DNA from: Blasia pusilla
Lineage: Eukaryota
Direction: 5' to 3'
Assembly: GCA_050084515.1 (NCBI GenBank)
Contig: CM114271.1
Location: forward strand, 34,100,001 to 34,164,000
Length of the DNA: 64,000 nucleotides
The notes below the pieces were generated by a model. The model made no database searches and was not told the origin of the DNA. It saw only the letters and a list, made by a program, of their open reading frames with translations. Shown here piece by piece: positions 14,142 through 54,600 of the stretch (positions are counted from its first letter, which is position 1; each line of letters starts with the position of its first letter). The position numbers were made by a program, and so were the translations under genes.

Positions 14142-15177
14142 TGTAAACTCCTCTATCATTAAGTGATAGAAATAGTTTTATTAGTAGTGAGTAAATTATA
14201 ACTAAGGAAAATCAAATTTACATGTTTTAACCTCTTTAGGGTGGCATATTTGTGCGGGCCTAACTTTAGGGAAAGAGGTAATAAATAAGATATGAGAGTA
14301 TAAAAATAAAGTAATAAGGTTGGTGTACTAATGAAAGAAAATTAAAAGTAGTCTTGGTTGATAGGTAGTAATGGCTAGGGTAGTTGGGGTAGTTTGGAGG
14401 ATATGAAGTGAGTTGATGGAGATATTTTGGAGAAAATAACATGTAACCTACTTGTCAAAATGGGAGTGGTTAAGTCTTGAGAGAAAGCCATGTGGCACAA
14501 GATAAGATTAGCCCGATTTTGTGCTCTTGTGGATCCTTTGAAAGTATATAAAAAGGAGGGATCTTCAAGGGTTTACCCCTTCTACTTTAGTTTTTGAATC
14601 TTCCTTGTTGCTCTTTAGTGGATAGAATTAGCTCGCTTGCTCTTCCAATGAGAGTGGACCACCCCTCTTGGGAAAAGGACTTGGTTAAGTTCTATTCTTC
14701 AAGAGTTTCAAGAATCTGATATGAGATAATTATTTTGGGAGACTTATCGTCTTAGGGGAGTTTTGTCATATTAGGCATAGTGGATGGTTTTGATTTGTTA
14801 TTTTCCCAATGAGAATGGATTACGCCTCTTGCGAGAGCAACTCCGCCAAAACCCTTTCTTAAGGAGAGTAGAGAATGTTCGTTAAGTATGGATAGAGGTG
14901 GAGCACGAGTCCTACCTGATTTTCCTTTCTTTAATCCGTACCACGTGAAGGTTCTCTTCGTAGATAGACACTAGTTTACCACTTTGGGAAGGCATTCAGG
15001 AATCAGGTCATGCAATCTCAACTCTAGTGATTCTTCTTATTGTCACGTACGTAAATATATGAGATTATACTTTGTATGTCATTATATAACGATCTATGGA
15101 TGTTAATAGTCCTGCTCGAGTAGGGTTTAACACTAGTTGTGTTATTTTTTTGGTGTATAAGCGTAAAAGAGTTTACA
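14142..15177 (+). mobile_element. LTR-like sequence (~1.04 kb), solo or truncated LTR retrotransposon
   Basis: Perfect 9-bp terminal inverted repeat TGTAAACTC (14142) ... GAGTTTACA (15177), with an internal TATATAAA at ~14545. No TSD is evident and no partner LTR is in the window. Confidence 0.5.
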
Positions 15178-18100
15178 AGACTTCATGGTTAGGAATCTCC
15201 GGGTTTGATGTTATGAAGAAGTGATCGCCTCGACACTATCATTCTTGATTCCTGTCGTGAGAGAATGGAGAGAGTATATAATAATTCTGTATTGAAAAAA
15301 AGAACTTCTTAAAGAGTTCACCTTGCATCAACTACGTTTGCTGCAGCTTAAAGGTTTGACCTTACTCGAAGAAAAGCTCTCGATACGACACTGGTTTGAG
15401 GAAAAATAGATGGTACCCACAATTATAATTTTCGCACAACAACATCTGATCAACATCGTCTGTCCTTTGACATACTTGACATGGATAGTCAAGTGGAGGT
15501 ATCCAAGTAGCAGTGACGATGGTGGGATCCAAGTTAAACAAGTGGTATGGTGCGCAATTTTTCGAATGGTCTTGAATGGTGCGTCCATCAACCCTTTGTG
15601 ATTGTAACATACCTAAAGGCCTAAGTCTTGATCTGTAAGATGATGACAAGTAGAGGTGTCCAAGGGTTGCCGCTGAAGATAGAAAAAATTACCAACATCA
15701 AAGTGTCTCACCTTCGGTTTGTAACTGCCACCTCTCGTGTGAGCATACCGTAGTGTGTCTCGATGTTGCGCGATTGCCAAGTTCTCCATGGCCATGGGCA
15801 TGACTCTCCTGAATAGGTCAACCCTCTTTGAGATAACCCAAGCCCAGATTTAATCAGAATCCAAGACTACAACCTGGTCCATTTGAGAGGCAATGGAAGA
15901 GGGTGGAACCGAGTGTTTGCCAAAAAGCAAGAAATAGGGAGAAAAGTGTGACAATGAGGCATGCGTGGACATTCGATACCCCATAGCAACAGCAGAAAAG
16001 GCCAGGTCCCAATCCTCCTTGTTTTTGGTGAGGAAAATCTTACATAGGCTCTTCTTGCACGTTTGTACCATCCTCTTGGCAAGCCCATTAGCTTCAGGGT
16101 GATCTCTCGAAGTTTGCCAATGGTCGATGAGGGCATGGTCAAGCAGCTCCTGCTATTCACCTCTGAAATCTGATTCCTGATCAGTAAGACACCCAGCATG
16201 GGCCCAAAATTGACTAAGGACCTGCTGAAGGAAGGCTTGGCTAGTGCTTCGAGAACTCTTATCCGGAAATGCCACCAAATCTATCCATTTAGAAAAGTGC
16301 TCAATCATAATCATGATGTAAAGATTACCCCGAGCCGTATGAGGTAATTCTCCAGCTAAATCACATGACCAGAGATAGAACATGCTTTGGTTAGGGAGTG
16401 GATGAAGTGTGGGTTGTCGACAAGAGAGAAGTTCTCACTCTATCACATTGTTCACAACTAGCAATCAGATTTCGGACTTGAACGTACATGAGGAGTGAGA
16501 AGGCTGTAAGTGCGCTTAACTCCAAAGTGTCCAAGCTCTGAATGTACCTTTTGAATGAGGCCAGGTCTCGCATGTGGTGGGGGAACCACTCTATCTCCTT
16601 GTAGCAAGCATCGGACTAGGTGGTTGTTTCTCCATGAGTAGCGTTTAGACCGTTGCTGTACGCGATCCTGCTGACCTGACGTAACTTCCCCATGCTAAGG
16701 AAATCCCAGAGTGTCTTGGTCCTCCCATATATCCACAATGAGGTAGCATTGTGGATATATGGGAGGACCAAGACATTGCGCTATTGCATTGCAGTAGCGC
16801 AAGGTAGCTAGATGCATGAGATGCTTGCACCGCTGAAATCTGGTCAAAGTCTTGTCTTACTTCTGAGAAATCTTCAGATGTAGTGAGGGGTCTCCATGAC
16901 ATAGTACCCGCATTTTGATGAGTGACACCAGGTCGATGAATAACCTCAAACTCATACTCCTGAAGTATGAGTGCCCAACGAGCTAACTTGCCGGTAAGCC
17001 TTTTGTCGGTCATCAACGGCTTAAGTGGCTGATGGTCGTTGTACAGGGTGAACTTGGTGCCATAGAGGTAGGGTCTGAAATGTATGACAGCCCATACTAC
17101 AGCAAGGCACTCACCCTCGTAAGAGGAGTAGTTACTTTCCGCCTTGATGTCGCTCCTTGACACATAGGCAATGACATACTCATTATCTTTCTCATCGTGC
17201 TGGCCAAGTACAGCACCAATACCAAGAGCACTACAATCGGTATGTAGGATGAAGACCTGGCTGAAATCAGGTCTTTGAAGTATCGGGTACTCTGAAAGTT
17301 GCTCCTTGAGTGCTTGAAAGGCTAGTTGAGGGTCTTGATTCCAAGCCCAAGGGACGTCCTTCTTCAATAAGGCATAGAGAGGATATGCGATGGTGCTGAA
17401 ATTTTTGACGTAAATAGGGTAATAGTTACACAACCCAATGAAACTCCTCAACATGTGCACATCAGTAGGGTGAGGCATCTACAAAATGGCAACCACCATG
17501 GCCCAATGAGCCATGACGCCATTCGAAAGAATACGATGCCCAAGGTAAACTACTGATGTCACAAAAAACTCGCATTTCTTGGGATGTACTTTCATATCCA
17601 CAGAAATCAGCCTCTTGAATAGCTCCTCAAGATGAGCAAGGTGTTGCTCAATCCCCTTGCTGCGGACTAGCACGTTGTCAATGTAGAATTTCAGAAAATC
17701 TGCACCTTCAAGTACCTGGTCCATGACTAGTTGAAAGAATATGGGTCCATTCTTCAAGCCAAAGGGCATCAGCAGCCACTCCCATAGTTGATGGCTACCT
17801 TGGAATGCTGTTTTCTTGCATTCTTTTGCACGTAGTACAATCTGGTTGCAACCTTGCCGCAATTCCACAATGGTGAAGAGGTCCGAGTCCCCAATGCTAT
17901 CAAACAGCTCCTCTAAAATGGGCATGGGATATTGATGTTGAGGTGTAACCAAGTTCAGAGGTCGTTAATCCCCACACATTTCAGTCCACAATCCAGCGGA
18001 GTCCTTCTTTGCAGTCATAACCGTAGCCGTAGTGAAATCTGAACTAGAGGGATTTATGAGACCAGCCTCTTGGAGCTCCTGGCACCTCTTATCAACAAAC

Positions 18101-18619
18101 TCCCACTCATGCCTGCTCAGACGATGTCTCCTCCGATAGACAGGTGTCTCATCACTAAGGTCGATGGAGAACTGCATAGTCTTGTACTTGGCCAGATCCT
18201 TCATTGAAAACGCAAATACATTCTCATACTTCAGCAGCAATCTTGTGACCTGATCCCTTTGCTTCTTGTTGAGATGGTTTCCCATGATGAATGAGTAGTT
18301 AGCAACACATGGAATGGAGCTAGAAAGTGTGCCAAAAGAACCAGATGTACTAGCTTTTCCACTATCCAACTGCGCATATTCGTGGAGGAATGTAGTCGCC
18401 TCTCCAAAACCTGACGTAACTCCAGGTCTGATCTGATCCATGAATGAGGTATTTTCAGAGGATTCAGATGTATGAGAGGCCATTGGAATCAAATTACACG
18501 GTACTCCTCCCCCCCCAAATAGTCGGAATGAAGTGCAAAGTGTTGAAGATGGGAAGATGTACTTGATCGGGGTGCCATGTAATAGCATTGCTGCAACTGA
18601 ATGCGGATTGACCCAACGC

Positions 18620-19348
18620 TGGCTGTGTGTACATTTGAGATAGTACACAGGTCACCAAAAGCCATGTGAGAGAGTTCAGATCCATAACTCTCCGCAATAG
18701 AATAGAGCATTGCGCTCTAATCTAGTCACTTTGGTGTGACAAGTCATGCCGATTTTGAACCCCATAGCCCTCTCTCTCTCTCGCACCGTCCAACCAGGGC
18801 GCAGGGTTTATGGTCGCAAGGTTACGACAGGCACTACTTAATAATGAGTACAGTCTCTCTCTCTCTCTCTTTAGGGCTTGGTTCATCCCAAGTACCTGTA
18901 GAATGGTGATAGACTAGGCCTGGCCCATCTCCTTGAAAGGCACGGGCTCCTGGAAATGAAACTAGAGTGGTCAAGCACCTCTTGGTTCACCTATTACGTT
19001 CGTCGGAAACCATGGAGTCTTCCCTTGCCACGTAACTAGTTGGCAAGAACTTTGGTCATCCAAGATGTGAGAAACCTAGAGCATAGGGTCTCTAATCTTT
19101 TTTTCAGAGCCAACACAACAGAGTGGTCCAGAAGTTAGCAAACGGTGCGCATAAGAACCACATTGCGCCGCATCAGGTAGGACTCTAGGAGAGGTGCCTC
19201 GAGAAAATGTTGGACCAGCATGTAATGCTCTTGCACTTTCTCTCTCTGATTATCCTGAAAAGGAGTGTTCTGAATTCTACAAAAAAGAGTGGGAGAAAGG
19301 GCTTGGGTCCAAGTGATTACTCGCACCATGTCCACGAAAAGGCTGGAC
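18620..19348 (-). pseudogene. C-terminal half of a C5-cytosine methyltransferase domain in family-2 pol
   Basis: Hand translation of the minus strand: SLFVDMVRVI...RIQNTPF (motif VI, ENV-like), DAAQCGSYAHRL.NFWT (VIII), TLVSFPGARAFQGDGPGLV, ERAMGFKIGMT (IX), RRVMDLNSLTWLL (X). These are colinear with the DNMT at 38.9-39.8 kb. Confidence 0.8.
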
Positions 19349-19882
19349 TCTCAACTTATCGTCTTCAAGCGATAGTTCTTCTTCAACCTCTTGAAGAACC
19401 CTTGGCACTCCTGACCGATGGTGGGGCACTAGTACCTCCACTCAGTACTCCCAGGTTCCAAGAACCCCCAATCCTTCTCTGAATCATTTTCAATCGGGTG
19501 GGGACATAGTAGGAGCACTACTTCCATGACAATGGGTGATAACTGAGACCAATATTGTCTCTTGAATCTCAGCAACATGGTCCTTCCTAAACTCATGGTT
19601 CGCAATGGGTGGTCCCTCAAGTCTTCCAAACAATACCAAGCCAAGAAGGGTGTAAAAATTTGGCGTTGACTGCATATCACACCCTCTCAAACCTGAATAA
19701 AGTCCTCCAACTCAATGGTGCCCACTTCGAGTATATGTGGGCCCTTCATGGCCCCATGGTCCAAATACCAAATCAATGGAGCTTGCAAAGTAGCGGCTGA
19801 ATCGTGTTTGGAACATCCTTTTCCTCCTCTTCATCAACCTTCGGAAGTGGAAAAGGTAGCCGATACCTCAATCCACTCCTTG
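19349..19882 (-). mobile_element. gag fragment of the family-1 element embedded in family-2 pol
   Basis: RSGLRYRLPFPLPKVDEEE, CDMQ, LEGPPIANHEFRKDHVAEI and FFKRLKK match 36062-36670 closely at DNA level. Confidence 0.8.
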
Positions 19883-22800
19883 AGCCTCTGTAGAACTTCT
19901 GGTCCATGCTTAATTTCAGTAGGAATAGCCTCCAAGCTTTCAGCAGCTTGTGCATAGGCTATATATCTCTTCTTCATCATCCTCCATCCACTCACTCATG
20001 GCTAGCTTGCCGGATGTAGGAAATGGTGTTTACCTCTTTGAACATACAGTGGCGAGCCATAAGATTATGGTTCCCATGTAAATCCAGAGGAATGTATACG
20101 CGGCTGTGGCCATCAGTTTCCCAATCCACTCGATAGTATGCGTGCTCGAACCAATTGTCGATTGTGAAGCTTGGTGGAAACAAGGCCTCTTGCCCAATGA
20201 GCACATCATATCTGCTGGAATTGGTGACTAAGAATCTGACCTGTAGATGAAGCTCCTGATCTGTAACTTCACTGAAGGTAAGTGAAATCAGATCATAGCT
20301 CTCCCCAAGTACCTCCTCCACATTCCCACTAGTGGTTCGAATCTGCCACATGGATTTCCGCAGTTTGGAGTCTAGCATGCCCATCTTCTTGGCAAATTGT
20401 AATCCCAAAATCATTGGTTGGGCACCTGTATCAAAGAGTACTACTCTAGGTGTATGTCCTCCCACCTTATTTTTTGACTTGGTGTTGTCAACCGTGGCAA
20501 CTCCGGTGGCAATGGAGGTTCTCTCGATCACTAGGTACTACCTTTGGAAATGTGCGAGAAACCTTGTGGAGAGAATAGCTATCCACAACACCTTTGCTGA
20601 GTAGCAAGTTCAAAATTGAAGTAGTCTTTGACCCTCTCTGATCTTTAGATGTAGGTATAGCTGTAGAGGAGCCATCTAGTTAAGCGATGTTGCTAGAACG
20701 AATGATCAAATTGCGAACGCCCTCCGCGATATGCAAACCAGAAGAGTGTCCCTTTAGAATGTGGGACGGGACCTCCATGACATGTAAAAAAGGGGATGGT
20801 AGAGGGCCTGATGTAGTATTCAGGGTGTCCTCTAGTATCGTGATACACCTCCCTGATGCTTAGCTTCAGGTCCTCGAAGCTGAATAGCGGTGTAATCAAG
20901 AGCTTATGCGCCACTTCGTGAACTGGAAGTTGGCACTTCACAAACTGATCATTGGACAGATCAAACTTCTCGTGATGTAAGTATACTCCTGAAACAAAAT
21001 AATTTGATGTCCCAACAGCTTGTGGTGTAGAAGCTGTCTCCTCGCCAACAAGGTGCTCTCCTCCTCCAAAGTGAGGGGACGGAAAGATTGTGGCATGACT
21101 GCCCTAGCCCCTCTAGCCCTGGTCATGGGACCTGTACCAGATGCAAGATAATCAGTCTGAACCACTCTCCTGGTGGTAGAAACCTTGCGTGTCACACTAG
21201 CTTATTGCGCGACGAAGTAGGATGGACAAAATGATGTATCAAATTCTGCGGTGAGACCAGATTGGTTCGCTGGGGAGAGAACATACCCTCCCATCATGGC
21301 CTCATGTGGGAGGTCATAGAACGACCTTGGAAATCCTTTCCCTAATCCTGAACCTTTTACAGCTTGAGCATGACTAGCTGTTGGGGTAGACTTGCCCTTC
21401 AATGTGGCAAGTTGGGCTCGCAAAGCCTCTACAACGCCTTCAGCGTTTGAACCTTGTGCTTGGGGCACCGACTTCTTGGCAGCCTGGTACTCTTGTTCTT
21501 AGAATCCTTGCTGGAGCTACGCCTTAAAGGAAATCCCTGAGTTGAAGGCTGAGCTGGCTTGCCTTTGGGTAGAGAGGCAACGGCTGGTTGTTGCAGATTT
21601 TGTCACGGTTTCCGGAGTCGCTTGCATTCCGGAAATTTGGCAAAACAAACAGCCTCTCGATAAGCCTATTTCCCACAATAATCACAGAAGAGATCCTTGG
21701 AAGGGATGTTGCATTCACGAGCCTTGTGATCAGGGTTACCACAATAGTTGCAAGAAGGTAGGATGGGTGCCAAAAAGTGCACCCGTTTGCTACGAGAAGA
21801 GAAATGAGAAGATCTGGTCAGAGTAGCGGATGGTGGCAGAGGTCTAGCACGGGCTGTAGGCCTCATATTGATGGCCTCATAGTGAGCATGGGCCAACTCC
21901 AACTTCTCAGAGATGTTGTACACATCCAACAAGGCGTAGGAGTTGCCAAATTCTGCGAAAACTCGTTGCAAAACTTGCGCATGGAGTGCCGGAGTACTCT
22001 CCATCGCATGAAGATACCGATGGGCAGCCTCCAGGTTTGTGATGCTCTGAGTGTCCTCCTTAAGCTTGAGGAGCCTCCTGTATAGCATCTTGAGGGTCTC
22101 TTACTTCTGCTGAGAGAAGATGGCGAGCTGGAAAATGTTTTCAGAGCTCTTAACCGGGAATTCTAGCTCAAGAACCCGGAAGAATTCTCCCACTGGATCA
22201 GCAAGGGCTAGTGAATTAATGGTAGTGGAAATGTAGGCCGTAGCAGCGGCGAGTTGTTGTGGAGTCAGCGCCACTGAGATAGGTACCGGATCTAGATTAT
22301 TTGCCTCGGTACCATGATGCGCAAAGGTCTTCCGTTGAACTTCTCAATTTTCCCAGAGGAGTTGCTGACGTCCATGGTGAATGAATGTGATGGAGTGGCG
22401 GCTCGCAATGGGCCAATGTCACATACACAGCCGATGTGAAACCCAGTCCGGCAGCTGAAGTATCCCACTGATTCAGTCCACCAAATGGACTCTGATATAT
22501 TCTAGATGATGTGTATCCGGAACCTGAACTTCTGATAGGGCTTGTACTAGGTGACGGCAGCGATGAAGGCCCTTGATTGTATCACCATGAATGCCGTGAG
22601 CTCATAGAAATTGGTACAAATGGCCGTGGATCACTTCGCAGCCGATAGTGTGGCTCTGGTTGGTCACTAGATCTCTCATCTCCAGAGGACATGTTGATGT
22701 TCCATGCCCCAAGAGCATGGTAGAAAAAGCCGAAAGTAGCACGGAGCCCTTGCCAAGAACTTTCTAACGTAGCCTACTTAACTACACACAACTTGCACTC

Positions 22801-26627: not shown

Positions 26628-27839
26628 ATGTCCACTGTATTGCTCATGATACCCATATTATAGGTCCTCTATCTCAAGTGGTTCCTACTTATACCCATTT
26701 TGTGGAGCAATCCTCTAGCTTAAAGCTTAAAGTCCAGCCTAGTAAATGTTTGGTATGGGCTTCTTTATGCCTTCCCTAAATATTCATCATGCCTATTCTT
26801 GATTTTACCGTCTACATTAAATGGGTTTGGATTCTTGGGGTCCCAATTGGTTTCATCGACTATATATTCAAGTTCTTGGATGAAGCCCTAAGATTTAGAA
26901 AGATGTAGAATGGCTTCATTTGTTATCTCATCAATAGGATTCCCAAGTGGCTTATGGGATTCTCTGCTAATATTTTATGATGTCCCTCCTACCTTCTTTG
27001 CACTTGTCCTTCCACTTTAGAGTTCTTATATTGGTTGGCCTCTTTTGACACTTATATCATGGCAACTTTCGATCAATTTCTCGGTCCAAATACATTTGAG
27101 GGAAATTACGATGTTTTGGTTTCACAAAAATCTATCTTGCCTATTTATTTTGGAGGGTTGGGGCTTTCCTTCACGGTTGCATTGGGTCTAGCAGCTTTTC
27201 TAGGGAGTTAGGCTTTAAGTGCCCTCATTTTTACTTCAAGGTTTCTCTAAGGAGATGCATTTATTGTGATGGATCATGTTGCTCATATAGTGTAGGGCAA
27301 TGAACAAGGAGATCCGGGGTTTAGAGTATTCGTAGCCGGCAGTTTTTTGGAATTTCCTTCCCTGCTCGAGAGAGGCCGGCTGAGATTCCGGCGCATTTGA
27401 CTGAGTTTTCGGAAGATGGCAGAGCGGATTCGGTGTAGCCAAAAACTCCCCGGGAATCGCAGAGGCTTGACTGGGATTACACCTGCGACAGGAGGAGACA
27501 CCGGAATTTGACCGATATTATATTACGGGCTGACGAAATGCTATTGGAATAGTTTTTGACAATTGGAAAATTGATGAGTTGTGATTGGAGGGTAGATGGA
27601 GGGACGGATATGCACTCCAACGTGTTTTCAAATCCTGGCCGCACAGTAGAGGGTTTTACAAAACTCTGTAAGGTGCCCCAAAATCAGCCGCACCCTAAAA
27701 CCTTCAGGCTGCCCCTCTAAAACCGTTCGATGCTTTGGAGTCTCATCCGACAATATTGAGCAAACCCCGGGTGGGACGGACTCTACGGAGTGAGGCGCGG
27801 ACAGAGGTGAGAGGGTGGGGGGTATATCTCTCCATGGCT

Positions 27840-28330
27840 CATTGTACGATTTTGCCCGCAGCTGCCCTGTTGTGCCCTCCTCTATGCCGCGGCTCTGCAT
27901 TTAGCGATCTTGCCCGTTGTGGCTCATTGTGTGATTTTTCCCGCTACTGCTATGCTCTACTCTACTCTATGCCGCGGCTCTGTGTCGAGTGCTTTTGCTT
28001 CCTGTTGCACCTTTGATAGTTGTTGTGCCCTTGCTCACTATTGCGCCCTTGCCCGCTGCTGCACTTTTGCTCGCTGTTGCGCCATTGTGCGCTCTTGCTC
28101 TTGCTCGCTGTTGCGCTGTTGTGCGCTGTTGTGCGCTCTTGCTCTTGCTCGCTGTTGCGCTATTGTGCGCTCCTGCTCGCTGCTGCGTTTTCGGCTCAGC
28201 AAGAGCAAGAGATTTGTGCGCTCTGCTTGCTTGCTATTGTCACTGCGTTCTTGCCCACTTAGGATGCTCTTGCCCAATATTGTGTGCTCTTGCTCACTGA
28301 TGCGCTCTTTCCTGCTATTGTGTACTCTTT
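27840..28330. repeat. Degenerate short tandem repeats (TGCGCTCTTGCTCTTGCTCGCTGT-like) in the hAT 5' subterminal region
   Basis: Repeated GCTCTT/GCGC/GCTGTT units directly visible. They produce the Cys/Ala/Leu-rich spurious ORFs in the ORF track. Confidence 0.7.
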
Positions 28331-34131: not shown

Positions 34132-34499
34132 TGTCATGACCATACGGATTATGTCGTAGAGTACAGTGTGTTAGTAGAGGCCATTCCTTATGTAGGACCG
34201 TAGTGGCTTGGTAGAGATGCGGTTTCATACATAGGGTTGGGGGTTACTCAATTGGGGGTGACTTTCCCAATAGGGCCCGCTCTTAGGTTGGAGGATATAA
34301 GGTGGAGTGCACTCAAAGAACAGTCAGTTCTTTGAGTTGAGCCTGTTGCGTTGGGAGTTAGCCTTGGTAGTGAGTAGAGCTCTTGGCTATAGTGTTTCCC
34401 GCAAGCTTCGACTTAGATTCTCCCATCATGGAGTGGGTTTGGCTCGATTGTATGTGATTCTATACGTGTTTTATGACAGTAGGTCTTTCACGGATTTCA
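34132..34499 (+). repeat. Repeat A1 (368 bp; distal U3-R-U5 part of the LTR)
   Basis: Matches 43477-43844 with 9 substitutions by manual alignment. Contains TATAA at 34296 and Inr-like TCAGT at 34324-34328. Confidence 0.95.
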
Positions 34500-34509
34500 C
34501 TCAAAGAAC
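34499..34509 (+). promoter_or_regulatory. Self-priming primer-binding site (Tf1-like)
   Basis: ACTCAAAGAAC at the LTR end is the exact complement of GTTCTTTGAGT (34327-34337) at the predicted transcript 5' end. There is no TGG tRNA-type PBS. Confidence 0.75.
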
Positions 34510-35961
34510 AGGAGTAGATCGATGGTAGTTTCGATTGTGGTTCAATAGGATCTGGTTAGGGCTGATTGTGTACTCAGCCGTGGATGTTCGTGGCTTATGG
34601 CCTATGTTGGAGGTATGAATCTGGTGCGTGGTAGGGTTGCGAAAGAAGCGCCTTGCTGAGAGCTTTCCAACGCGCTTTAGATCGCCGGATTTTGTCAAGG
34701 GAGTTGGAAGTTATCAAGGATTGAAGATTCTGGTTCGTGTTCGACGGTTTTTTGATGTGGAGAGCTTGGAGTGCGGAAGCTCTGTTGAAGTTCATCCAGA
34801 TCGGGTGAGAGGTTCCTATTGCTACTTGTATTGTAATCTCATGTGAAGCTATCTGCTTGAGTGTGTGGAGTGTTGCGGATTTCTGCGTGCATGAAACTTG
34901 GCGGAAGCGCTGTCGGATTTGCGATTCTGGAGGTGTATGGACAGCAAGTTTGTCTGTGTTGTAGCTGTTTTTTGTGGAGAGATAGCTATGGTGGTCAATT
35001 GAATTCTGGTCAAAACAGATTTGATTTTGGTCACGGATTTGTGAAGTAATTGGTGATCGAAATTTTGCGGACTAGCTCAAGGTCCGGCTATGGTGGACAG
35101 CGGATCGGAGGGGCTGGTTGGTTAGTGACTCGTTCATTGTTGGAGACTCCTATCCCGTTGGGGGCGCGCTGGTTGGGCCTCTCTCCATAGCGAAAATGGC
35201 GAAGCGTGGCGATAGGGGCATGTCTCGAGCATTTCTCGGCGTTTTGAGGCTTCGAGGCAACTTGTGGTAACTCGGGGCGAGTGGGCGTGAGAGTCGGAGT
35301 AAGGAGCAAGGAGCAAGCAAGCAAGCTTGCTTGCTTGGGCGTGAGGCAATTTTTGCAGGATTTGTGATTTGAGTGTTGCATAACTGGTCACCTATCTTTG
35401 GGCTATTCTTCTTGGAGGACGCTTAGCTGCTGAGTTCTTAACTATGCCAGTGTACACACTGTTGTATCTCATTTGGTGCTGTTCGGAGATGTGTTAGGCG
35501 CTTTATGCATCTCAGGTTTTTGGTTGATGTACCTCTAGCACATAGTACAGTGTAGCCTCTCCATGCAGGTGATATTTTCAGGTGTTGCGAGTTCGACTAG
35601 CACGTTATCGACCCGCGGCGGAGTAGCTATTGCGTTAGAATTGTGTGGTGGGTTTTGTGGATTCAAGGGGCACCACGTTTGGTGGATTATGTTACCTTGA
35701 TTTCCATTTGCGATTGGAGGGTTGTCGTTGGACTTCCTGTGTTTGGATCCCCTCCATCGTTGCTTCTTGCTTGCGCGCCCATTGTTAGGGTTGACGTTGA
35801 TTTCCAAAGTAGTCTTACTCTTGTGTGCTATCGATAGTGAGGTTGGAGTGATAACCAATAGACCGTGGGAGGCTTCTTGTGGTGATGAAAGTTAGTTTGC
35901 CTACACCCATAGCTAGTAGAGCTAGAATAGTATAGCGACATCGACGTCACTTGGTTACTTA

Positions 35962-37540
35962 ATGGTGGTAATTTGGTGGTGGTGCGGCATCGGCGTTGGT
36001 CATCACGGAGTTGTCGGGTGGTCTGGTTGGGGACCGTGGTGCGGACAGTGGTGGTTTCACACGGAGTGGATTTAGGTATCGGCTACCTTTTCCACTTCCG
36101 ACGGTTGATGAAGAGGAGGACGAGGGTGTTCCAAACACCGAGTCTTCTACATTGTTATCGAGTGTTGGAGCTCCATTGATTTGGGACATGGACGGGATAT
36201 ATGGGGCCATGAAGGGCCCACGAAGATACTCGGGTGCAGTGGGCACCATTGAGTTGGAGGACTTCATGCACGAGTTTGATACGTGGTGTGATATGCAAAT
36301 GTTGGGGAACGCCACGTTGTTTACACCCTTCTTGGCTTGGAAGGGGTTGTTTCAGCACTTGGAAGGACCACCCATGGATGATAACCATGAGTTTAGGAAG
36401 GACCATGTTGCTGAGATTGAGGCGTGGAGACAATATTGGTCTCCAGGCTATGTGTCTATCACCCATGGTGGTATTGGTAGTAGTGCTCCTACTATGCCAG
36501 CCAGCCCGATGTTGAGTGGTACGAGTACGAGCCGGAGTGGGGGTACCAGTGGAGGTACCCATGGAGGTACTAGTGGGGGTACTAGTGCCCCACCATCGTT
36601 CAGCCCGGTGGCAGAGTTCTTCAAGAGGTTGAAGAAAACTATCAGGGAGTGAAGACAGAAAAGTTGAGGAGTCTTTAGGAATTTGAGCGAAAGACTGGTG
36701 AGAGTCTTCGTGAGGCATACACTCGTATGCAACGTTTGATTTTAGTTACCCAGAGTGTGACTGAGGCTCAGGCAATCCTGTTTTGGTATGGGATCTTGGA
36801 CAAAGATTTGCGCCGTAGGGTACGTGATGTTACTCTTATGAGTGATGATTCACCCACATTGACCCATGTGTTTGCTCTATTTGAGAAGATTGAGCTTAAC
36901 ATGGTGAAGGAGAGAATGGTGACATCCGGCATTCAGTAGGGATACAACTACTACTTCTCGTGTTCAACAGCCCACCTCACAGTCTCGTAATAGTGGTGGT
37001 GGTAGTAGTAGTGGGAGTCGTGGGGGGTACACACGACCTCAGTCAGGTCCAAGAGGGACACTTGCGCAGAGACCATTGCCTTCATTTGCTGCCCGCAGAA
37101 GGGCGATCATGTTGGACATGTGGAGGTGATCATGTTAGGAAGTTTTGTCCCCAAGAGGATGGGAGACGGACTTTGGAGGATGGGCCTCAGTTGGCCCCAA
37201 CTCAGTGTGATCATTGCGGGAGACCAGGTCATCCTCGAGAGCGTTGCTTTGATCTTCATCCAGAGTTGAGATCAGGCCGCGGCCGTGGTGGAGTAGCTCC
37301 GAGAGGCCGAGGTGGTAAAGGTGGTAGGGGTGGTAGAGGTGGACCGGTGGTTGAGAGCCTCACGGTGGCTACCCCTACCACTACGACAGAGTCAGCTATG
37401 GTCGCAGGATTGAGTGATTGGAGCGGAAGTTGGCTACTATGGTCGGGTATCCAACATAGATCAGGTTCAGGAGCAAGGGCTTTCACCTCTTATGGAGGGG
37501 ATGATCTCTCTTATATGGCGAGTGCAAAAGACAAAGGTTG
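35962..37540 (+). pseudogene. gag (capsid-like region, CCHC zinc knuckles, RGG tract), frameshifted
   Basis: PRRYSGAVGTIELEDFMHEFDTWC, CWTCGGDHVRKFC, CDHCGRPGHPRERC, GRGGKGGRGGRGG. Confidence 0.8.
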
Positions 37541-38010
37541 AGGCATCACTGCGATTCTGAGAGGAGCCACTCAAGCGTCGAGCCACGTGGTGCTCTTGTG
37601 GAGTTGGACCCACAGAGGGGTGAGGCGGGAGGCGAGGCTAGGCTTCCCAGTCATTCTTGTTGTCCGAGGTGCTTAGGACTCCATCCATGGTTCCCCACGC
37701 ACCCTATTGAGCCGCAGTGGGGACCGAGGCATCTACATCGCATGTAGTAGACACGGATGCAAAGATCCATCGGCAAGATTATGTGCGGATGGCAACTTCA
37801 GCGTTGGGATCCCCATTATTTTCGCCACGGAGTCGATGGCTTTAGGAGTTGACTTAGCTCTCAGTATTTCAGCTAGCACCACATTGTATGAACGTGGGGT
37901 GTTATTCGCTACACGTGCTCGAGGTGGATGAGGGTGTTGCGGTGGAGCGACCCTCTATGTCAGGTGTAGTATTGAGTACCAGTGCTACTTGACAGGCAAC
38001 AGCGGCGAAG

Positions 38011-38520
38011 ATGGATGCATTACCAGCCCGGCCAGCCATTGATCGTGAGAGGCTTACACTTGGTGTATGTATGTTGGACAAATGGAGTGGGATATTCCGA
38101 TTTGTGAGTCCTACAGGACAGGTGTATAGACCAGATAGAGTCTTGTTAGACTCTGGTGCCCAACCTTTGATGTTGGGAAAGGCGGCATGTATTGGTTTGG
38201 GTATTTGGAGGTCAGAGCTTGAGCCTTGCCCATTCCAGATTCAAACATTACTTGGAGGAGCCAATGATAGATCTCAATTCATGACATGGGAGAAGTTTTC
38301 TGTACAGTTGAGACCAGATCATGCGACTAATAGCTCCCGGTTGGGAGTATCTTCGGTAGTCACATCAGCCGAGTCGTATGATGTACTAGTTGGAGGAGCA
38401 GTATTGTACCCGATGGGTTTTCATATGGATTACTGGACTGAGACAGCGTCTTATAGACCTGGTTGGCAGTCCGGGGATGGACGTATGAGCCAAGTTCCTG
38501 TGAGATTTATTTATGGGGCT
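38011..38520 (+). pseudogene. Retroviral-type aspartic protease domain
   Basis: RVLLDSGAQPLMLG ... YDVLVG (D-S-G active site and D-x-L-x-G motif). Confidence 0.8.
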
Positions 38521-38874
38521 CAACCAGGAGGGTCTTCCCCAAGAGTGTTAGCATCTGTGGCTGGTTTTAGTGGAGTAGTCACTTGGCCAGGAGACTTTTT
38601 GGAGGGTAATGTTTCTGCTATGGATTCTCCTACGCATGAGGAGGTAAAGGAGGTCCCTATTTTTGCAGCCGTGGCATCCTCATCGTTGGATGTGCCACTT
38701 TGGAGTTCAGGCGGTGCACTACGGCAGGAGGCTGATCGCCTAGTGCAGAAGGCTTGGTGTGAGGCTGTTATACCTCACGAGGAAGAGGAGGCCCCACGGC
38801 GGACTCCAACTTCTGGTCCAGTTGGGTTATCCCCTTTGGATACTACACCCATTCTATGGCAGTATCCGCTGGAG

Positions 38875-39830
38875 GGCATTTGTGTGTTAGATCTCTTTGG
38901 TGGGATTAGCACTGGTTTGGCTGCAGTGTTGGAGGCCGATATTCCTGTGCGGAGATACGTGTATGTGGAGCGAGATGAGACGTCCCAGAGAGTCTCATCC
39001 CGACATATTGGTCAGTTGATGCGGAGATATCCTGAGTTGTTGCCGCCATCAGCTATTCGTGGGTACCAAAGTGCTTTGCCATCACACATTGCATTTTTTG
39101 GGGGCGCAGGACCTTGAGAGGGTTGGTCTGTGGATTTGGTGATTGTTGGATGGCCATGTCAGGATCATACACGTGCAGGTCGTGGTGAGGGATTACACGA
39201 CCCTAGGTCTCGATTGTTTTGGGAGATGTTACGGATGTTACGACATCTTCAGGTTCATTAGGCACGTGCTCCAGCTTACATTCTGGAGAATGTTCCATTG
39301 TTGGGTGACACTCGGACCCGGATGATGGCGAGTGTTCATGAGGTGCGGTCTTGGATTGGACCAGCGGTGTTGTTGGATGCAGCGCGAGTTGGCTCGCGTG
39401 CACATCGTCCACGCTTGTGGTGGACAAACTTGTTGCCTAGGGAGGTTCTACGTCGACCATATGATGCAGTGCAGCGGGATCCTTGCCTTACCGTGGATAG
39501 TATCTTGGATACTGGGCGACTTTCTCAAGTGGTGAGGGTTATTGATTAGTCACCCATGGCAGTGGTGAACCGTGTGGGCCAGCCTAGGATGGCACTACCC
39601 ACATTTGTGAGTTTTCCCTCGTCACATGCCTACAGGGAAGGTGGTCCGGGGCTTGTATGGGATTCTCATGCGGCGATTGGTGGAGCCTAACGCTGATGAG
39701 AAAGAGCGTGCGATGGGATTTGCTACTGGTGTGACAGTGGTTGCTTCTATTTCTGAGGCTTCACGACGTCATGTGTTGGGTCAGGCCATGGACCTGAATT
39801 GTTTGACTTGGATTTTGAGTCTTGGTATGG
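38875..39830 (+). pseudogene. C5-cytosine DNA methyltransferase (DNMT) domain inside pol
   Basis: Motif I VLDLFGGISTG (38884), II YVYVERDE, IV DLVIVGWPCQD (PCQ 39154-39162), VI ILENVP (ENV 39286-39294), VIII AHRPRLWWTN, IX ERAMGF and X LGQAMDLN, in canonical order. Disrupted by stops (39115, 39259, ~39547) and frameshifts. Confidence 0.92.
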
Positions 39831-40209
39831 CCGAGCAACGTCGACTTCGGACTACGTCTGTGGGTCTTCCACCCCTTGTAATGAGCTCGATGGCTATTGG
39901 GACGGTAGAGGCATCGGCTGGGGGCGAGGAGAATAGTATTTTGCATCCTTGGAGTAAATGGGATGTAATGGCTGGGCATGTGGAGTTGGTTGCTCATGTT
40001 GGTGGAGGAGTTATTTGCTCAGATGATGGTGTAGCTAAGGGTGTACCATCTTGTGAGGGGGTTATGAGTGACCAATGGCATCATCCTCTCCCTCTAGTGT
40101 GCCAGTGGAGGAGACTTGGGAGCCATTACTTGGGCCCAAGCTTACGGGAGGTGAGAAACGACGCTTGACATAGTTCCTACGTGCTTATAGGAGTTGTTTT
40201 GCCTTTTGC

Positions 40210-41560
40210 ATGAAGGAGTTGGGTTCTCTGGTTGGACCCGGTATACGGATTGATTTGGCTAGTGATACGCCAATCTTCCGTCGTCCCTACCGATATAGTG
40301 ATATGGAGAGGGACCTGATTCATAGTAGGACGTTGGACCTTTTGGAGGCTGGATTAGTGGAGTTGTCGCATGAAGAGTATGCATCGCCCATGTATCATGT
40401 CATGCTCGCTAAAAAGGATATGCATGGCAACTACACGGATAGGCGGATGTGTGGAGATTATCGTCCTATCAATCGGCAAACCAAGGCCGATAGGTATGCC
40501 ATGCCTACACCGAGGAGATCTTTGATGTGGTGGGACAGCAAAGATTTTCAGTACTTTGGATCTTCAGCAGGATATCATCAATTGCCGATTTGGGAGAGTG
40601 ACAAGGCCAAGACAGCATTTTGGGGTGTCAACTCTCATGGCAAGGATTGTTTGTACCAGTGGAAATTCTTACCCTTTGGGTTGAAGAATGCATCTTCCGA
40701 GTTTCAGAGAGTGATGGACAGGATCCTAGGAGGGTTGGATTTTGTTCGGTGTTACATTGATGATATCTTGGTGTTCAGTAACACGGTGGAGGAGCATCAG
40801 ATACATTTGCAGATGGTGTTTGAGCGGTTGAAAGCTCATGGTCTACGTTTGCATCCAGGAAAGTGTAAGTTCTTCCATGAGGATGTTGAGCACTTGGGTC
40901 ATGTGATCTATCCAGGTGGTTTGGGAGTTCAGCAAGCAAAGGTGGAGGCTATTGCACTTATTCCGCATCCGATAGATGTGAGTAGAGTTTGGGCATTCAT
41001 GGGATTGGCGAACTACTATCGGAGGTATGTGAAGGGATTTAGTGCTATGGCAAAGCCTTTGAACCAATTGCTGAAATCAGATCAAGAGTGGCACTGGGGA
41101 GATGATCAAGAGAGAGCTTTTGTGGAGCTTAAGGCCCAATTGGTGGCGGCGCCTATCTTGAGGAGACCTATCGAGGCGCCCATTTAGTTACACACTGATT
41201 GGACTACGTTGGGACTTGGAGCGGTGTTGACACAACATGATGATGAGCACATGGAGTTTGTGGTGGCCTATGCAAGTTGTTCGAATAATGCAGCGGAGTC
41301 GCGCTATAGTTCATATGACGGAGAGTGCTTGGCAGTAGTGTGGGCTGTGGCACACTTTAGGTGTTACTTGTTTGGCACATAGTTTACCCTTGTTACTGAT
41401 CACCAGCTGCTCAAGTGGTTGATGGAGTCTGACAAGCTTACAGGGGAAGCTTGCACGGTGGCTCTCTTATCTTACAGAGTATGACTTCCGGGTGGTACAT
41501 AGACCTGGAGTTGCCAACCTTGATGCTGATGGGTTGAGTAGGAACCCATGTACTAGCCAA
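40210..41560 (+). pseudogene. Reverse transcriptase + RNase H (Ty3 type)
   Basis: RMCGDYRPIN, LPFGLKNA, CYIDDILVFS (YIDD 40753-40764), HTDWTTLGLGAVL, TDHQLLKWL, NLDADGLSR. Confidence 0.95.
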
Positions 41561-41899
41561 GAGGATACAACTGGGGCTAGATGGCATGGCAAGGTTGATG
41601 AGGAGATGGTGCCAGGTTGGTATGCATCCGCCTTTTTATGTTGGTTAGGGGTGGACTCTAGTATGGAGGATCACATGATATCTTACTCTAGTCAGAGGGT
41701 AGATGGCCACCCTTCAAATCCTAAGGTTGGAGATGGTGGTAGGGATCAGCGTGATATTCATGATGATGCGTTGGTGTTGGAGTTCCTACGGACCAGTAGG
41801 GTGCCATGCATAGTGAGTGCCAAGGAGCGAGACCGTGTTCTTCAACGTGCTAAGAGGTATCGATTGGAGGGAACACATATTCTCCGCGTGTGGGAGGAT

Positions 41900-43030
41900 G
41901 GTAGAGTACGAGTAGTGCCACATTTGACTCAGAGAGAGCGCATTGTGCGACATGCCCATGAGGAGTTGGGACATTTTGGGGTAAAGCGTATGTATAGCTT
42001 ACTCCTTGGCCAGTATTGGTGGCGTGGCATGCATTCTCAGGTGCAGCAGTTGATGTCACGTTATATGGTTTGTGATCGGGTGAGGGCATCATTCAATGCC
42101 CCTACACCACAATTACACCCCTCGCCTATTATGGGGTTGAGTTATCGTTGGAGTGTGGACTTTGCGGGACCGTTACCGTTGACTGCACGACATCATCGAT
42201 ATGTGTTGGTGATGGTGGAGCACTTCTCCAAGTAGATTGAGTTGGTGGCATTACCGGACAAGGCAAGTGAGGGAACGGCGTATGCGTTTCTTGATAGAGT
42301 ACTTAGTCATTTTGGTGCACCAGCTGAAGTGTTGACCGACCAGGGTACAGAGTTTCAGGGTGAGTTTCATGTCTTGTGTAACAAGACGTTCATTGATCAT
42401 CGGACCACATCTCGAGATCATCCAGAGGCAGATGGTTTGGCTGAGCGTGTGGTTTAGACGGTGAAGAGGGCATTGCGCAAGTATGGCCTATAGAAGGGGC
42501 ATCTTGGAGACTAGGATATTCAGTTGCCATGGTTAGTCATGGGGTATAGGTTTAGTCGCCAAGCATCCTTGGCTTCCTTCTCACCTTATTTTCTGTTATA
42601 CGGCCGAGATCCAGACTTGCCAGCAGCAATTTGTCGGGAGTCTAGTGAGGTGGTGATCCTTGATGACCCAGAGATGTGGATGAGGATGTATTCTCAGCGG
42701 GCGGAGCTCTTTCGGAGAGTTATGCCAACAGCCTTTGAGAATCTTGCCATTGCTCAACACAGGGATACGTTGCGATATGCAACCATTCGGGGTGGAGATT
42801 ATCGACCATCGATTCGTAGGTTCCATGTGGGGGACTATGTCTATTTGCAGCAAATTGCACCGACAACATTGGATGTGACGGCAGGCCGCACTATTTTACG
42901 AGTGTGCAAGGTGTTAGCTTCTGGAGTTCTCATGTTGGAGGGTCGTGATGGAGTTGTTTGGAAGGACCATGTGCGTAATTGTGCGTCATGTCATCTTCCA
43001 AATGTGGATGGTATTGTTGACCCAAGCTTA
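41900..43030 (+). pseudogene. DDE integrase (HHCC zinc finger + rve core)
   Basis: HEELGHFG...YWW...CDR, WSVDFAGPLP (~42150), VLTDQGTEFQG (~42330), HPEADGLAER (~42420), SPYFLLYGR. Confidence 0.92.
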
Positions 43031-43054
43031 GTCATGATACGTGCTAGCTTGAGG

Positions 43055-43195
43055 TGCATGTTGTGTGGGTCTACTGGTAACGCAGCCCGTATGTTGGTGT
43101 GTGATCGGTGTTCTAGGGGTTGGCACATGATGTGTTTGACTCCACGTATGGATGTTGTTCCTACTGGAAGGTGGGTTTTTCCTCGATGTACTTAG
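43055..43195 (+). pseudogene. PHD finger at the integrase C-terminus
   Basis: CMLC...MLVCDRCSRGWHMMCLTP...GRWVFPRC is a C4HC3 pattern with one Cys mutated to Phe. Confidence 0.9.
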
Positions 43196-43358
43196 GAGAG
43201 GTAGATGACTTGATCTTTGCATGATATGGATTACAGATGTGCGACTAACAATGGGGCAACCTAGCACCCGACCTTCTGATTCGGGCACCCAAGAAGGTGT
43301 ATAGCATGTAGTAGATGTATAGGGCTACCTAGGAGTTAGAGAGACCTAACCGCCAGTT

Positions 43359-43369
43359 AGGGGGGCGAG
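43359..43369 (+). promoter_or_regulatory. Polypurine tract
   Basis: AGGGGGGCGAG immediately before B1 (TGTGG at 43371). Confidence 0.8.
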
Positions 43370-43370
43370 T

Positions 43371-43844
43371 TGTGGTACACTTGTGTTTGTGGATGTTCTC
43401 GTCTATGTTATGTATGTATGTGAGTATGGTATGTCAACGATGTATGTTGTATGACGATGTGGATTCGCACGACAGCTGTCATGACCATACGGATTATGTC
43501 GTAGAGTATAGTGTGCTAGTAGAGGCCATTCCTTATGTAGGACCGTAGTGGCTTGGTAGAGATGCGGTTTCATACATATGGTTGGGGGTTACTCAGTTGG
43601 GGGTGACTTTCCCAATAGGGCCCGCTCTTAGGTTGGAGGATATAAGGTGGAGGGCACTCAAAGAACAGTCAGTTCTTTGAGTTGAGCCTGTTGCGTTGGG
43701 AGTTAGCCTTGGTAGTGAGTAGAGCTCTTGGCTATGGTGTTTCCCGCAAGCTTCGACATAGATTCTCCCATCGTGGAGTGGGTTTGGCTCGATTGTATGT
43801 GATTCTATACGTGTTTTATGATAGTAGGTCTTTCACGGATTTCA
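43371..43844 (+). repeat. Complete LTR unit B1-GC-A2 (474 bp, TG...CA)
   Basis: Begins right after the PPT and ends at the same CA that precedes the PBS in A1. Contains the internal palindrome GACAGCTGTC at 43471-43480. Confidence 0.9.
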
Positions 43845-43846
43845 GT

Positions 43847-43950
43847 TGTGGTACACTTGTGTTTGTGGATGCTCTCGTCTATGTTATGTATGTATATGAG
43901 TATGGTATGTCAGCGATGTATGTTGTATGACGATGTGGATTCGCACGACA
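43847..43950 (+). repeat. Repeat B2 (104 bp), right terminus
   Basis: Matches B1 43371-43474 with 3 substitutions. Joined to A2 by CA-GT-TG. Confidence 0.95.
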
Positions 43951-51649: not shown

Positions 51650-54600
51650 TTGGAGAAAAGCGTATTATCGGCGACCCGGCTAGAGCGGTCGTGGCTATGG
51701 ACACTCCTCTCCATAGAAATTTCACGAATGGGAGCATCCTCTGCATGGACATGTCTCTCAATCAAATCACTAGGCCAAGTGATGGCACTGCTAAATGCTG
51801 CTAAGGTTGCCATCTCTCCTGGACGTCGCTCGATCACTGCACATGTGAATCGAACGGGTAATGATCTAAGGCGCCCATCTCCTGACTCCCATCCTGGTCT
51901 GTCGAACGCTCACTTCTCCCTGTAATCTAGGGAAAACCCCATCGGATATAACATTGCTCCACCAACCAAGACGTCGTAGGACTCTGCATCAGTCACTATC
52001 GCCTTGGCTCGCACCACAGACTCATCTGTAGGATGTCCTAGGCGAATCCTCACTACAACCTCCTGTCGGGTGATATACTGTGTGGTACTCGCTCCACCCA
52101 AGGATGTCTGTATCCGAAATGGACAATGCTCCACATCAACTCTTGTCAAGCCCAATCCTCTCCATGATGCTTTCCCCAACATCAGGGGTTGCGCTCCTGA
52201 ATCCAAAAAGACATGTTGCAGACTAAAAGCTCTATCTCCTAGACTCACAAACTGGAAGACCTCTCCCCAATTATCCAGCAACACAACACTAGGAGAAGCC
52301 ATGGCACGCTCTATCGCGGGTCTAGCGGGCATCTCCGCTATCCTACCAGCCGCAGCCTGCCATGAATCTGATGTGGACGGCCTGAGCATCCGCTCCAAGG
52401 GCAGGTCATTCACATCCTCTGCAATCACCTCTGAACGTGATGTAGGAACTCCAACTCCACACTCACATAGCATAGCGGCCAGCCAGAAAATCTATACAAG
52501 AGTATCTCCCAACATCATAACATTGGAAGCAGTAAACAACGGAGCACGATACACCATCATGGCCGCCCCCAACATCGTACTCGACATATCCTCCTCTTGA
52601 GCATCAGCAATAGGAGTCATCGCACTCGCTTCTCCCATCATCCTCCGTACCTGCACACCAATAACATCACCAACTCTCCAGGAACTCTCATCAGGACCCA
52701 TCGATGCGGTCCTCAAGTAGCCTCGTCTGTTTCCTGGCTTCCCCTCGCTGTGGATCCAACTCTACGGCTGCTCCACGCGTCATAATTGCGGCAGCCTCCA
52801 TCTGGGAAATCCCACACATCCAACCAAGATCCTCCACATCTCTGGCTGCTCCATATGATGTCGATGCCACGGATCCAGCATCGGCTAACCTCAATGCCAT
52901 AGCGGCAATCTGCTCTTGTAACTGCTGTATCTGAGCAGCCATCCCAGCCTCACGCTCGGCTGAGGTCTCTGTGGCACGGCCTTTTGGTATTCTCCTTGAG
53001 CTCGTGGTGCCACAATTGACCTATCTCGGAGTCCACGTTGTTGCACTGGTGGTGTTGCCATGCCTCAATCTCCTGGGCATATCTGTGGGAGAACTCATGG
53101 TAATCGTCCATGGGTGCCTCCTCTAAATGCTAGAACATACCGTTCCATGTTGTAAATGGGTTGAACTCTCTAGAGTTCCTAGCCCCTTGTGAGTCGCACC
53201 AACTCCTAAACTCCCCAATGAAGTCGTGTAGCTCTATAGTGCCTATAGCACCCGAAAACCTATGTGGTCCTCTACCCGGGTCGTCCATCTTGTATGCCCA
53301 ACTGGTAGGACCACTCAATGTGTACGGTGGATCACTAACACACTCCTCTACACGCTCCCCCTCATCAGAAGACGACATAGAAGGAGATCGAAGTGGTCTC
53401 TCACGTGGAGACCCTTGAAACCTCGCACCACTCCGAGTAAACCCTCTAGAGCTACTCTCAAGTCCACTACCTCGCCTCCCAAAATCCCGAAAGGATGCCG
53501 TGATGGCCCTCGTGCCCCTCTCACACGATCACTCTCAATCTCGCAAGTCATCCCTCAATCACTAAAACTAAACATGTGGCACTCAATGTACACTCTCTCA
53601 TTGAGACGTGTGTTGTGCGGCAACAAGCAGCGCAGTCCGGAAAATCAACTGATCTATCGTCTCATTGACAAACCATCCCCAACTCTGGACATCCCACACA
53701 AGTCTATGTCCCCTAAACCCATACATCATCGATGCTCTCAGCATCAACACAAAACCCAATATCCCAAATAACTTCCCAATATCCAAAAATCCCTCACACG
53801 TGCAGGGTAAGAGACCAAAATGGGTAACCTGACAATAAATGTCGATGCGCTCCCCGGCAACTGCAAATATCGACCCCAACTTGGTGGTGAAGAGAACTCC
53901 TCCAATCAGCAAGTTGTACTCCTCTCATACTGACGCCGCTCAAACCTCCTCAATATGCGATGCAGGTCCAGCCCTCCGGTGCGGCACTGGCGGCACGGAA
54001 AGGCTACAAACGGTACGACACTCGGGAATGGGATGCGGAACTTGGCAGCATACCCTCCTCAATCAGAAATTCACACGCTCTGCTCCTTAGTGAAGGAGCG
54101 GCTCCGCTCGGTTCGGCCACGAGCGGCACGACGCGGAAATTGGCGTCGCGTTGCGGCTACATGCGTCACGGCACGGTACTCGATCGTCGCAACATAGCAG
54201 CATGAAATAAAAACTCAAACACCATAACCTGAGGTCACGTGCCATCATTGGTTGATGACAAAACTGCGATGACGGTGGCAACCAAAACAAAGTACGTGAT
54301 GGTGGCGCAAGTCAGAGAATCAACAGTCATCGTGGAAGACCCTTCACTCCGTAATGGCGGCAATGCCAACCTAGGGTGGAAAACGGCCGAACGTGGCTCT
54401 AAGCAGCGCTAGGCGGCGGCGGCGGCCGACGGTGGATGGTGGACGATGACGGTTGATCATTGATGGTGATGTCGGACCATTGACAGTGACGGTTGACCAT
54501 CGATTATGATGGTTGATGGTGACTATGACGACGACGGCCGGCGGCGGCACGACAGCTGGTTTAGGGTTTGAACAATTTAACCCTAAAAATCGCCTAACAA

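Follow-up and report, generated by a model that had tools for sequence, protein, structure and literature searches.

Remains of a DNMT3-type methyltransferase in a second Ty3 retrotransposon family of Blasia pusilla

The stretch of Blasia pusilla DNA analysed here (64,000 nucleotides, referred to as the window) carries on the minus strand at 18,656-19,347 a sequence whose similarities mark it as the real C-terminal half of a DNMT3-type methyltransferase (DNMT) in a second Ty3 family, family 2. It very probably represents the remains of a domain native to family 2, which would be a second bryophyte lineage of the Gypsy-Dnmt3 clade, with a single ancestral capture of the domain and a later move behind RNase H. 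To judge from its sequence, the family-2 copy in the window is a dead chimera that possesses a methyltransferase minus the catalytic half, and being dead it contributes only one example of exchange between families. Its parts are the following:

21,492-22,712, minus strand: 5' leader and gag with two Cys/His knuckles (zf-CCHC E 0.02), 72% identical to protein P0035 in amino acids and colinear with related loci from 22,712
20,085-20,525, minus strand: aspartic protease (PR; PF13975 E 4.6e-5), 79-80% identical to P0033 and P0035
19,880-19,986, minus strand: first part of the PR-DNMT linker; family-2 sequence breaks off at 19,880, where 71 of the 74 alignment ends of this zone lie
19,348-19,879, minus strand: family-1 gag piece of 532 nt in the same sense, 75% identical in DNA, with many small gaps, to 36,060-36,673
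18,656-19,347, minus strand: C-terminal half of the DNMT3-type domain, frameshifted, with remnants of motifs VI, VIII, IX and X; groups with family 2 (SH-aLRT 100)
18,782-18,858, strand not given: high-copy insertion of about 78 nt between (GA)n runs, within the DNMT before motif IX
17,485-18,321, minus strand: reverse transcriptase (RT) with stops (PF00078 E 3.8e-20), 77% identical to locus L040
16,966-17,478, minus strand: RT connection and RNase H (RH; PF17917 E 8.9e-36)
15,670-16,685, minus strand: integrase (INT), zinc-binding part and core, frameshifted (PF17921 E 1.3e-3; PF00665 E 3.1e-8)
15,392-15,481, minus strand: PHD finger remnant, cut off; 77% identity to P0070 over 15,625-15,392, likeness to relatives ending at 15,393

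The DNMT remnants are spread over three frames from 19,347 to 18,656. A profile built from 17 homologous DNMT domains matches five pieces of them (best iE 1e-9 and 1e-8), and a frameshift-aware alignment with 74 of 192 positions identical scores 156, compared with at most 32 in 22 null sequences; both results bear out the first-pass annotation, which had recognized a methyltransferase here. The PF00145 search that it had proposed gives no match in any of the three frames of 18,600-19,400; in family 1 and in intact family-2 proteins the PF00145 match covers the motif IV region only, and this region is missing from the window copy. Remnants of motif VI (IQNTP, its Glu lost), motif VIII (DAAQCGSYAHRL, then a deletion), motif IX (ERERAMGF) and motif X (RVMDLNSL) are all present as had been claimed; the loss of motifs I-IV, including motif I and the catalytic Cys of motif IV, had escaped notice. 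The domain is also broken by several small indels, some of which are not the same in the window and in run X1 and may therefore be allelic or assembly-related. The insertion at 18,782-18,858 has a depth of about 4,000 in run X1, where one contig crosses its 18,858 edge, and no second copy of it was found in the window or in related loci.

The element is distinct from family 1, as the annotation had stated: both peptides that it quoted are present, TLVSFPGARAFQGDGPGLV lying at 18,968-18,912 on the minus strand and its family-1 counterpart at about 39,600-39,660, and gag, PR (29% amino acid identity) and RT-RH (44%) all differ. The PHD finger that had been attached to the methyltransferase stretch exists only as the truncated remnant at 15,481-15,392, beyond the integrase and outside the interval then annotated, and has no Pfam match. 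A different high-copy repeat at 15,000-15,392 adjoins and truncates the PHD end of the copy, and a search around the copy for terminal repeats (A or B of related loci) found none. About 245 nt are deleted from gag near 22,325. At 27,835-28,185, 54,489-55,176 and 16,697-16,790 the window also has tandem repeats, with lengths of 85, about 18-34, 224 and 134 nt, as well as a 44-nt inverted duplication that lies in the linker between RNase H and integrase; no tRNA genes were found within the 64 kb, and 13 other open reading frames have no Pfam match.

A scan of metagenome contigs yielded 345 relatives, of which the best 80 by DNMT similarity were taken, corresponding to 58 distinct family-2 copies with a median DNA identity of 89%; choosing loci in this way biases the sample towards conservation. 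The window DNMT is 72-84% identical in DNA to these family-2 loci. The order PR-DNMT-RT is found in 60 of the 80 loci and no other order was seen; among the remaining loci, ten have no PR match and eleven no RT match (one has neither), and ten of these eleven end at a contig edge. The integrase tail and PHD are visible in 34 of the 80, and the PHD of relatives is clear to Pfam (L040, E 6.5e-12; P0070, E 8.4e-10). The claim that the DNMT lies between PR and RT is therefore correct for family 2 in its native state; in the window the family-1 gag piece at 19,879-19,348 separates DNMT from PR. In 16 translated loci the DNMT continues into RT in one frame, one locus being frameshifted in the linker, and no stop in the DNMT-RT linker is common to the 16. 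These translations show that family 2 is predicted to encode gag-PR-DNMT-RT-RH-INT-PHD as a single frame, and the idea of a programmed frameshift between DNMT and RT was dropped because one open frame runs across both. In some lineages, unlike in family 2, a second frame may serve to express RT, since the gag-PR-DNMT frames of P0001, P0002, P0020, P0022 and P0024 end shortly after DNMT, before RT. Family-2 proteins with a named source belong to five Sphagnum species and to Calypogeia fissa. Two family-2 copies stand in tandem on contig L009, and the outgroups include two unrelated Ty3 RTs that neighbour family-2 copies on the other strand (L058:2074-2676 and L074:4455-5114).

When compared with solved structures, the DNMT profile matches DNMT3A best (E 2e-22), with DRM at E 5e-13 and M.HhaI at E 3e-9. 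The L040 domain, modelled with a pLDDT of 95.3, has its structural matches in DNMT3A/B at E ~1e-19, DNMT3A being the top match (E 2.4e-19), and modelling thus shows a predicted DNMT3A-like fold for the family-2 domain. Motifs I, IV, VI, VIII, IX and X are all present in family 2, IV and VI as variants: motif IV is GWECQG, with EC and not PC (Glu in 53 of 58 copies, the catalytic Cys in 55), and motif VI is ENT, not ENV. These replacements, together with the negative yeast assay of the Klebsormidium enzyme described in the main text of PMC5890265, would suit a domain retained as a non-catalytic DNA- or SAM-binding module instead of an active methyltransferase. Such retention is rather unlikely, however, considering that an alignment of 39 rows shows no variation at the Cys, the motif VI Glu, one Arg of motif VIII or the Trp and Asn after it, and that EC occurs in 34 of 116 proteins (PC in 80), in several lineages and mostly paired with ENT. 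An acidic residue before the Cys also occurs in some bacterial and phage C5 enzymes, which likewise speaks against a non-catalytic module.

The dN/dS comparison that had been suggested as a check shows apparent purifying selection on the family-2 DNMT between subfamilies: the ratio is 0.12 for L001 against 57 copies and 0.19 for the window copy against 56, compared with a within-family baseline of 0.33 among decayed copies, which is below 1 probably because C-to-T change dominates decay. Other domains of the window copy give 0.16 (gag), 0.22 (PR), 0.07 (RT, where dS is near saturation) and 0.15 (PHD). Decaying copies have undergone C-to-T change at 23% of CHG, 18% of CG and 7% of CHH sites, compared with 2% for any change at A/T, a pattern that fits methylation of inserted copies by the host and is uninformative as to the enzyme encoded by the element. 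Cis methylation of new cDNA, as proposed earlier by de Mendoza et al. (PMC5890265), is suggested by where the DNMT sits in Pol and by the selection on it. The protease would free the DNMT inside the particle, the DNMT would methylate the element's own new cDNA, and the PHD of the integrase would read histone H3 at the insertion site. Cis methylation by a protease-freed DNMT, with the PHD guiding insertion, is on balance the role that the sequences favour, ahead of a non-catalytic role in family 2 and of further roles.

A single clade (SH-aLRT 99) takes in all 54 RTs that come with a DNMT and leaves out the 18 outgroup RTs, in a tree of 99 rows that also includes five other rows and 22 in-clade rows that are too short to reveal a DNMT, so that losses may have occurred among them. 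Sixteen of the outgroups were random draws from multi-RT matches and two came from locus flanks; the RT and DNMT trees are quick ones with SH-aLRT support only, without bootstrap, and no plant host DNMT3 is among their rows. Across the 46 elements in which both domains are available, the two trees have 18 of 43 splits in common, ten of them strong, and the Mantel correlation is 0.70, compared with at most 0.22 in 2,000 permutations. The congruence check suggested by the first-pass annotation thus finds agreement at ten strong splits and one strong conflict (P0339, a long branch). Tree agreement of this kind shows DNMT and RT to be apparently co-descended and is no sign of co-adaptation, since kinship alone yields it.

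The DNMT lies between RNase H and integrase in 34 of the RTs, which form a subclade (99) nested among PR-DNMT-RT elements. The members of this large subclade, of the order RT-RH-DNMT-INT-PHD, include P0028, P0104, P0303, P0312 and others; P0117 and P0122 also have a precomputed PF01585 match. Of the 43 proteins that combine DNMT and integrase, 33 also have a PHD. An RT search blind to DNMT returned 15 DNMT-bearing proteins among 150 matches, many of the others being multi-RT proteins in a ranking by summed score. A single capture of the DNMT in the ancestor of the clade would have been followed by its shift to a place behind RNase H in one of the subclades. The two DNMT positions in pol could instead reflect domain swapping among related Ty3 lineages or more than one capture, and so could the P0339 conflict, the limited share of common splits (18 of 43), the exchange between families at the window locus itself and the movement of DAM domains between retrotransposon classes reported in the accessible part of bioRxiv 10.64898/2026.05.21.726589. 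Swapping or multiple capture is nevertheless improbable, as a single clade holds every DNMT-bearing RT, the DNMT tree repeats 10 of the 13 strong splits of the RT tree, and the conflicting branch is a long one. The earlier proposal that DNMT and PHD are old in the clade and were retained is thus supported by the single RT clade, the agreement of the trees and the dN/dS of 0.12-0.19, with the qualifications given above. The trees do not place families 1 and 2 as sisters, although an AU test on 32 chosen rows does not reject their sisterhood (p 0.154). Both families contain moss and liverwort members, which indicates either an old origin or horizontal transfer.

The gag piece at 19,879-19,348 takes the place of 448 nt that comprise the end of the linker and DNMT motifs I-IV, including the catalytic Cys: in the uninterrupted family-2 protein P0035, residue 915 corresponds to 19,879 and residue 1,065 to 19,347. 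The piece is absent from 80 of 80 related loci, which were chosen for a whole DNMT. Its depth in contigs of run X1 is about 10,000, compared with about 7 for the flanking family-2 parts, and the chimera therefore looks unamplified. Loose ends at 19,879 in run X1 run on as family 1, and the junctions have microhomology of a few bases only. The piece may have come by template copying, either in double-strand-break repair or through an RT template switch, with a product that was not amplified. That it is an assembly artefact of a very high-copy repeat is a thought prompted by its copy number and by the fact that no listed run X1 contig bridges either junction; this is very improbable, since a similar length is replaced at sharp points and the piece has its own scattered small gaps relative to family 1. 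That the stretch downstream is a nested, decayed fragment of family 1, as the gag piece directly upstream might suggest, is ruled out by blastn, in which the window DNMT matches nothing in family-1 DNMT DNA at E<=1, and by its grouping with family 2 (support 100).

The family-1 element of the window has its own complete, decayed methyltransferase:

34,132-43,950, plus strand: family-1 element with split repeats, TG..CA ends and flanks ATAT/ATAC
34,132-34,499 (A1), 43,368-43,474 (B1), 43,477-43,844 (A2) and 43,844-43,950 (B2), plus strand: family-1 repeats, split as A1..B1-A2-B2
38,851-39,835, plus strand: family-1 DNMT with every motif present, stops and one frameshift (PF00145 E 3.5e-9; 17-domain profile iE 1.7e-132)

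Family-1 DNMT is 68-72% identical to the best Marchantia and Calypogeia proteins, and the named sources of family-1 proteins are Marchantia polymorpha, Calypogeia and Sphagnum. The two flanks match at three of four bases of the target duplication. Family-2 loci have the same split repeats, A..B-A-B with TG..CA ends; B-A-B is found in 10 of the 58 distinct copies, most others being cut short or collapsed. A perfect 4-bp target duplication flanks six of the ten family-2 loci with both ends, and of the other four, two run off the contig, one is mislocated and in one the flanks do not match; L052, in which one cut-off copy is assembled further, has a 4-bp duplication as well. A G-tract before B1 and a B1/A2 junction that reads GACA-GC-TGTC or a decayed form of it are common to both families, and inspection by eye found no tRNA primer site after A1 in either. 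At 34,132-43,950 and in L028, L049, L052, L064 and L080, split direct repeats are found together with TG..CA ends, a DDE integrase, 4-bp target duplications (three of four bases at 34,132-43,950) and a B/A junction that is palindromic. L068 and L072 have A..B only, with intact target duplications, as expected from recombination between B1 and B2 that removes A2. In replication, the G-tract would prime the plus strand, the internal B1/A2 junction would serve as template for both ends, and the integrase would trim the two bases after CA.

It can tentatively be proposed that Gypsy-Dnmt3 is a deep Ty3 lineage, diverse among green plants, whose members almost always possess DNMT3 and PHD and include at least two old moss/liverwort families; that the DNMT moved once within pol; that replication is of an undescribed type, in which both TG..CA ends are rebuilt by the split repeats from a palindromic junction inside the element (GACA-GC-TGTC) and the product is inserted by a DDE integrase with a 4-bp duplication; and that the enzyme methylates the cDNA of its own element. 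The presence of cytosine methyltransferases in retrotransposons is a standing question, and the sole Gypsy-borne enzyme tested showed no activity in yeast according to the main text of PMC5890265. Elements of this kind are also present in Marchantia polymorpha, where gag-PR-DNMT frames are annotated as uninterrupted (P0002 represents 18 member sequences), and these copies put the question into a genetic model plant with methylation mutants. Such elements also artificially raise the number of annotated 'DNA methyltransferase' genes in bryophytes, and their ends may be misread by software built for paired LTRs.

Among known systems, host DNMT3 (human DNMT3A/B; moss PpDNMT3, PMC6453930) has the same fold and linear motif order, but identity to animal DNMT3, the only host sequences compared, is 20-25%, and the element DNMT is intronless and lies inside a polyprotein. 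Chromoviruses (Tcn1, Chlamyvir) and Phygy/Selgy resemble the elements in Ty3 domain order, and the chromovirus reader is also fused behind the integrase; the comparison with these groups is one of published descriptions. A chromovirus was rejected because Pfam finds a PHD and no chromodomain after the integrase. The main text of the REXdb survey (PMC6317226) has no occurrence of PHD, methyltransferase or Marchantia. EpiLTRs and DAM-LTRs (bioRxiv 10.64898/2026.05.21.726589) are LTR elements that combine a methyltransferase with a chromatin reader; their DNMT is DNMT4-related and comes with DAM and a chromodomain, unlike the DNMT3 and PHD described here. Troyka, considered as a candidate split-repeat element, was rejected because PMC12440569 gives it ordinary LTRs, CG..CG ends, 3-bp duplications and animal hosts, whereas TG..CA ends and 4-bp duplications are found here.

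The elements have a DDE integrase, TG..CA ends and 4-bp duplications, unlike SymbioDIRS-Dnmt3, a DIRS element that they resemble in having a retrotransposon-borne DNMT3 and split repeats. DIRS elements integrate by a tyrosine recombinase. DIRS, Ngaro and PAT elements, with a tyrosine recombinase and usually no target duplication, are excluded by the rve match and by the 4-bp duplications in six of ten loci. SymbioDIRS-Dnmt3 methylates CG in yeast and is treated in the main text of PMC5890265 as a capture independent of KnitGypsy-Dnmt3.

KnitGypsy-Dnmt3 of Klebsormidium nitens is described in the main text of PMC5890265 as an unrearranged DNMT3-type domain in the Gypsy Pol frame, under purifying selection, with A..B-A-B repeats termed DIRS-like; it gave no DNA methylation in yeast, a result that its authors call inconclusive. 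PHD does not occur in that main text, although a figure or supplement may show one. The literature covered, which excludes subscription journals and Repbase, contains no land-plant description of Gypsy-Dnmt3 elements, although a figure or supplement of PMC5890265 may list more hosts; the parts of PMC12344493 and bioRxiv 10.64898/2026.05.21.726589 covered give 'streptophytes' for such elements and name no land plants. Sphagnum, Marchantia, Calypogeia, Closterium and Klebsormidium nitens all supply named relatives of the DNMT-bearing elements. P0149, a gag-PR-DNMT protein, shares 98% identity over 176 amino acids of the PR region with a K. nitens protein, the published K. nitens copies themselves being outside the comparison; its DNMT falls into one group (support 93) with those of families 1 and 2, and the Closterium proteins also belong there. 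The present elements differ from KnitGypsy-Dnmt3 in their moss and liverwort hosts, in their EC/ENT motifs and in a DNMT only 34% identical to that of P0149. They share with it the Ty3 order PR-RT-RH-INT with a DDE integrase, an unrearranged DNMT3-type domain in frame with RT and RNase H (family 2), DIRS-like A..B-A-B repeats (family 1 and family-2 loci) and purifying selection on the DNMT. With K. nitens among the named relatives, the bryophyte elements are, by these sequence comparisons, of the published KnitGypsy-Dnmt3 kind.
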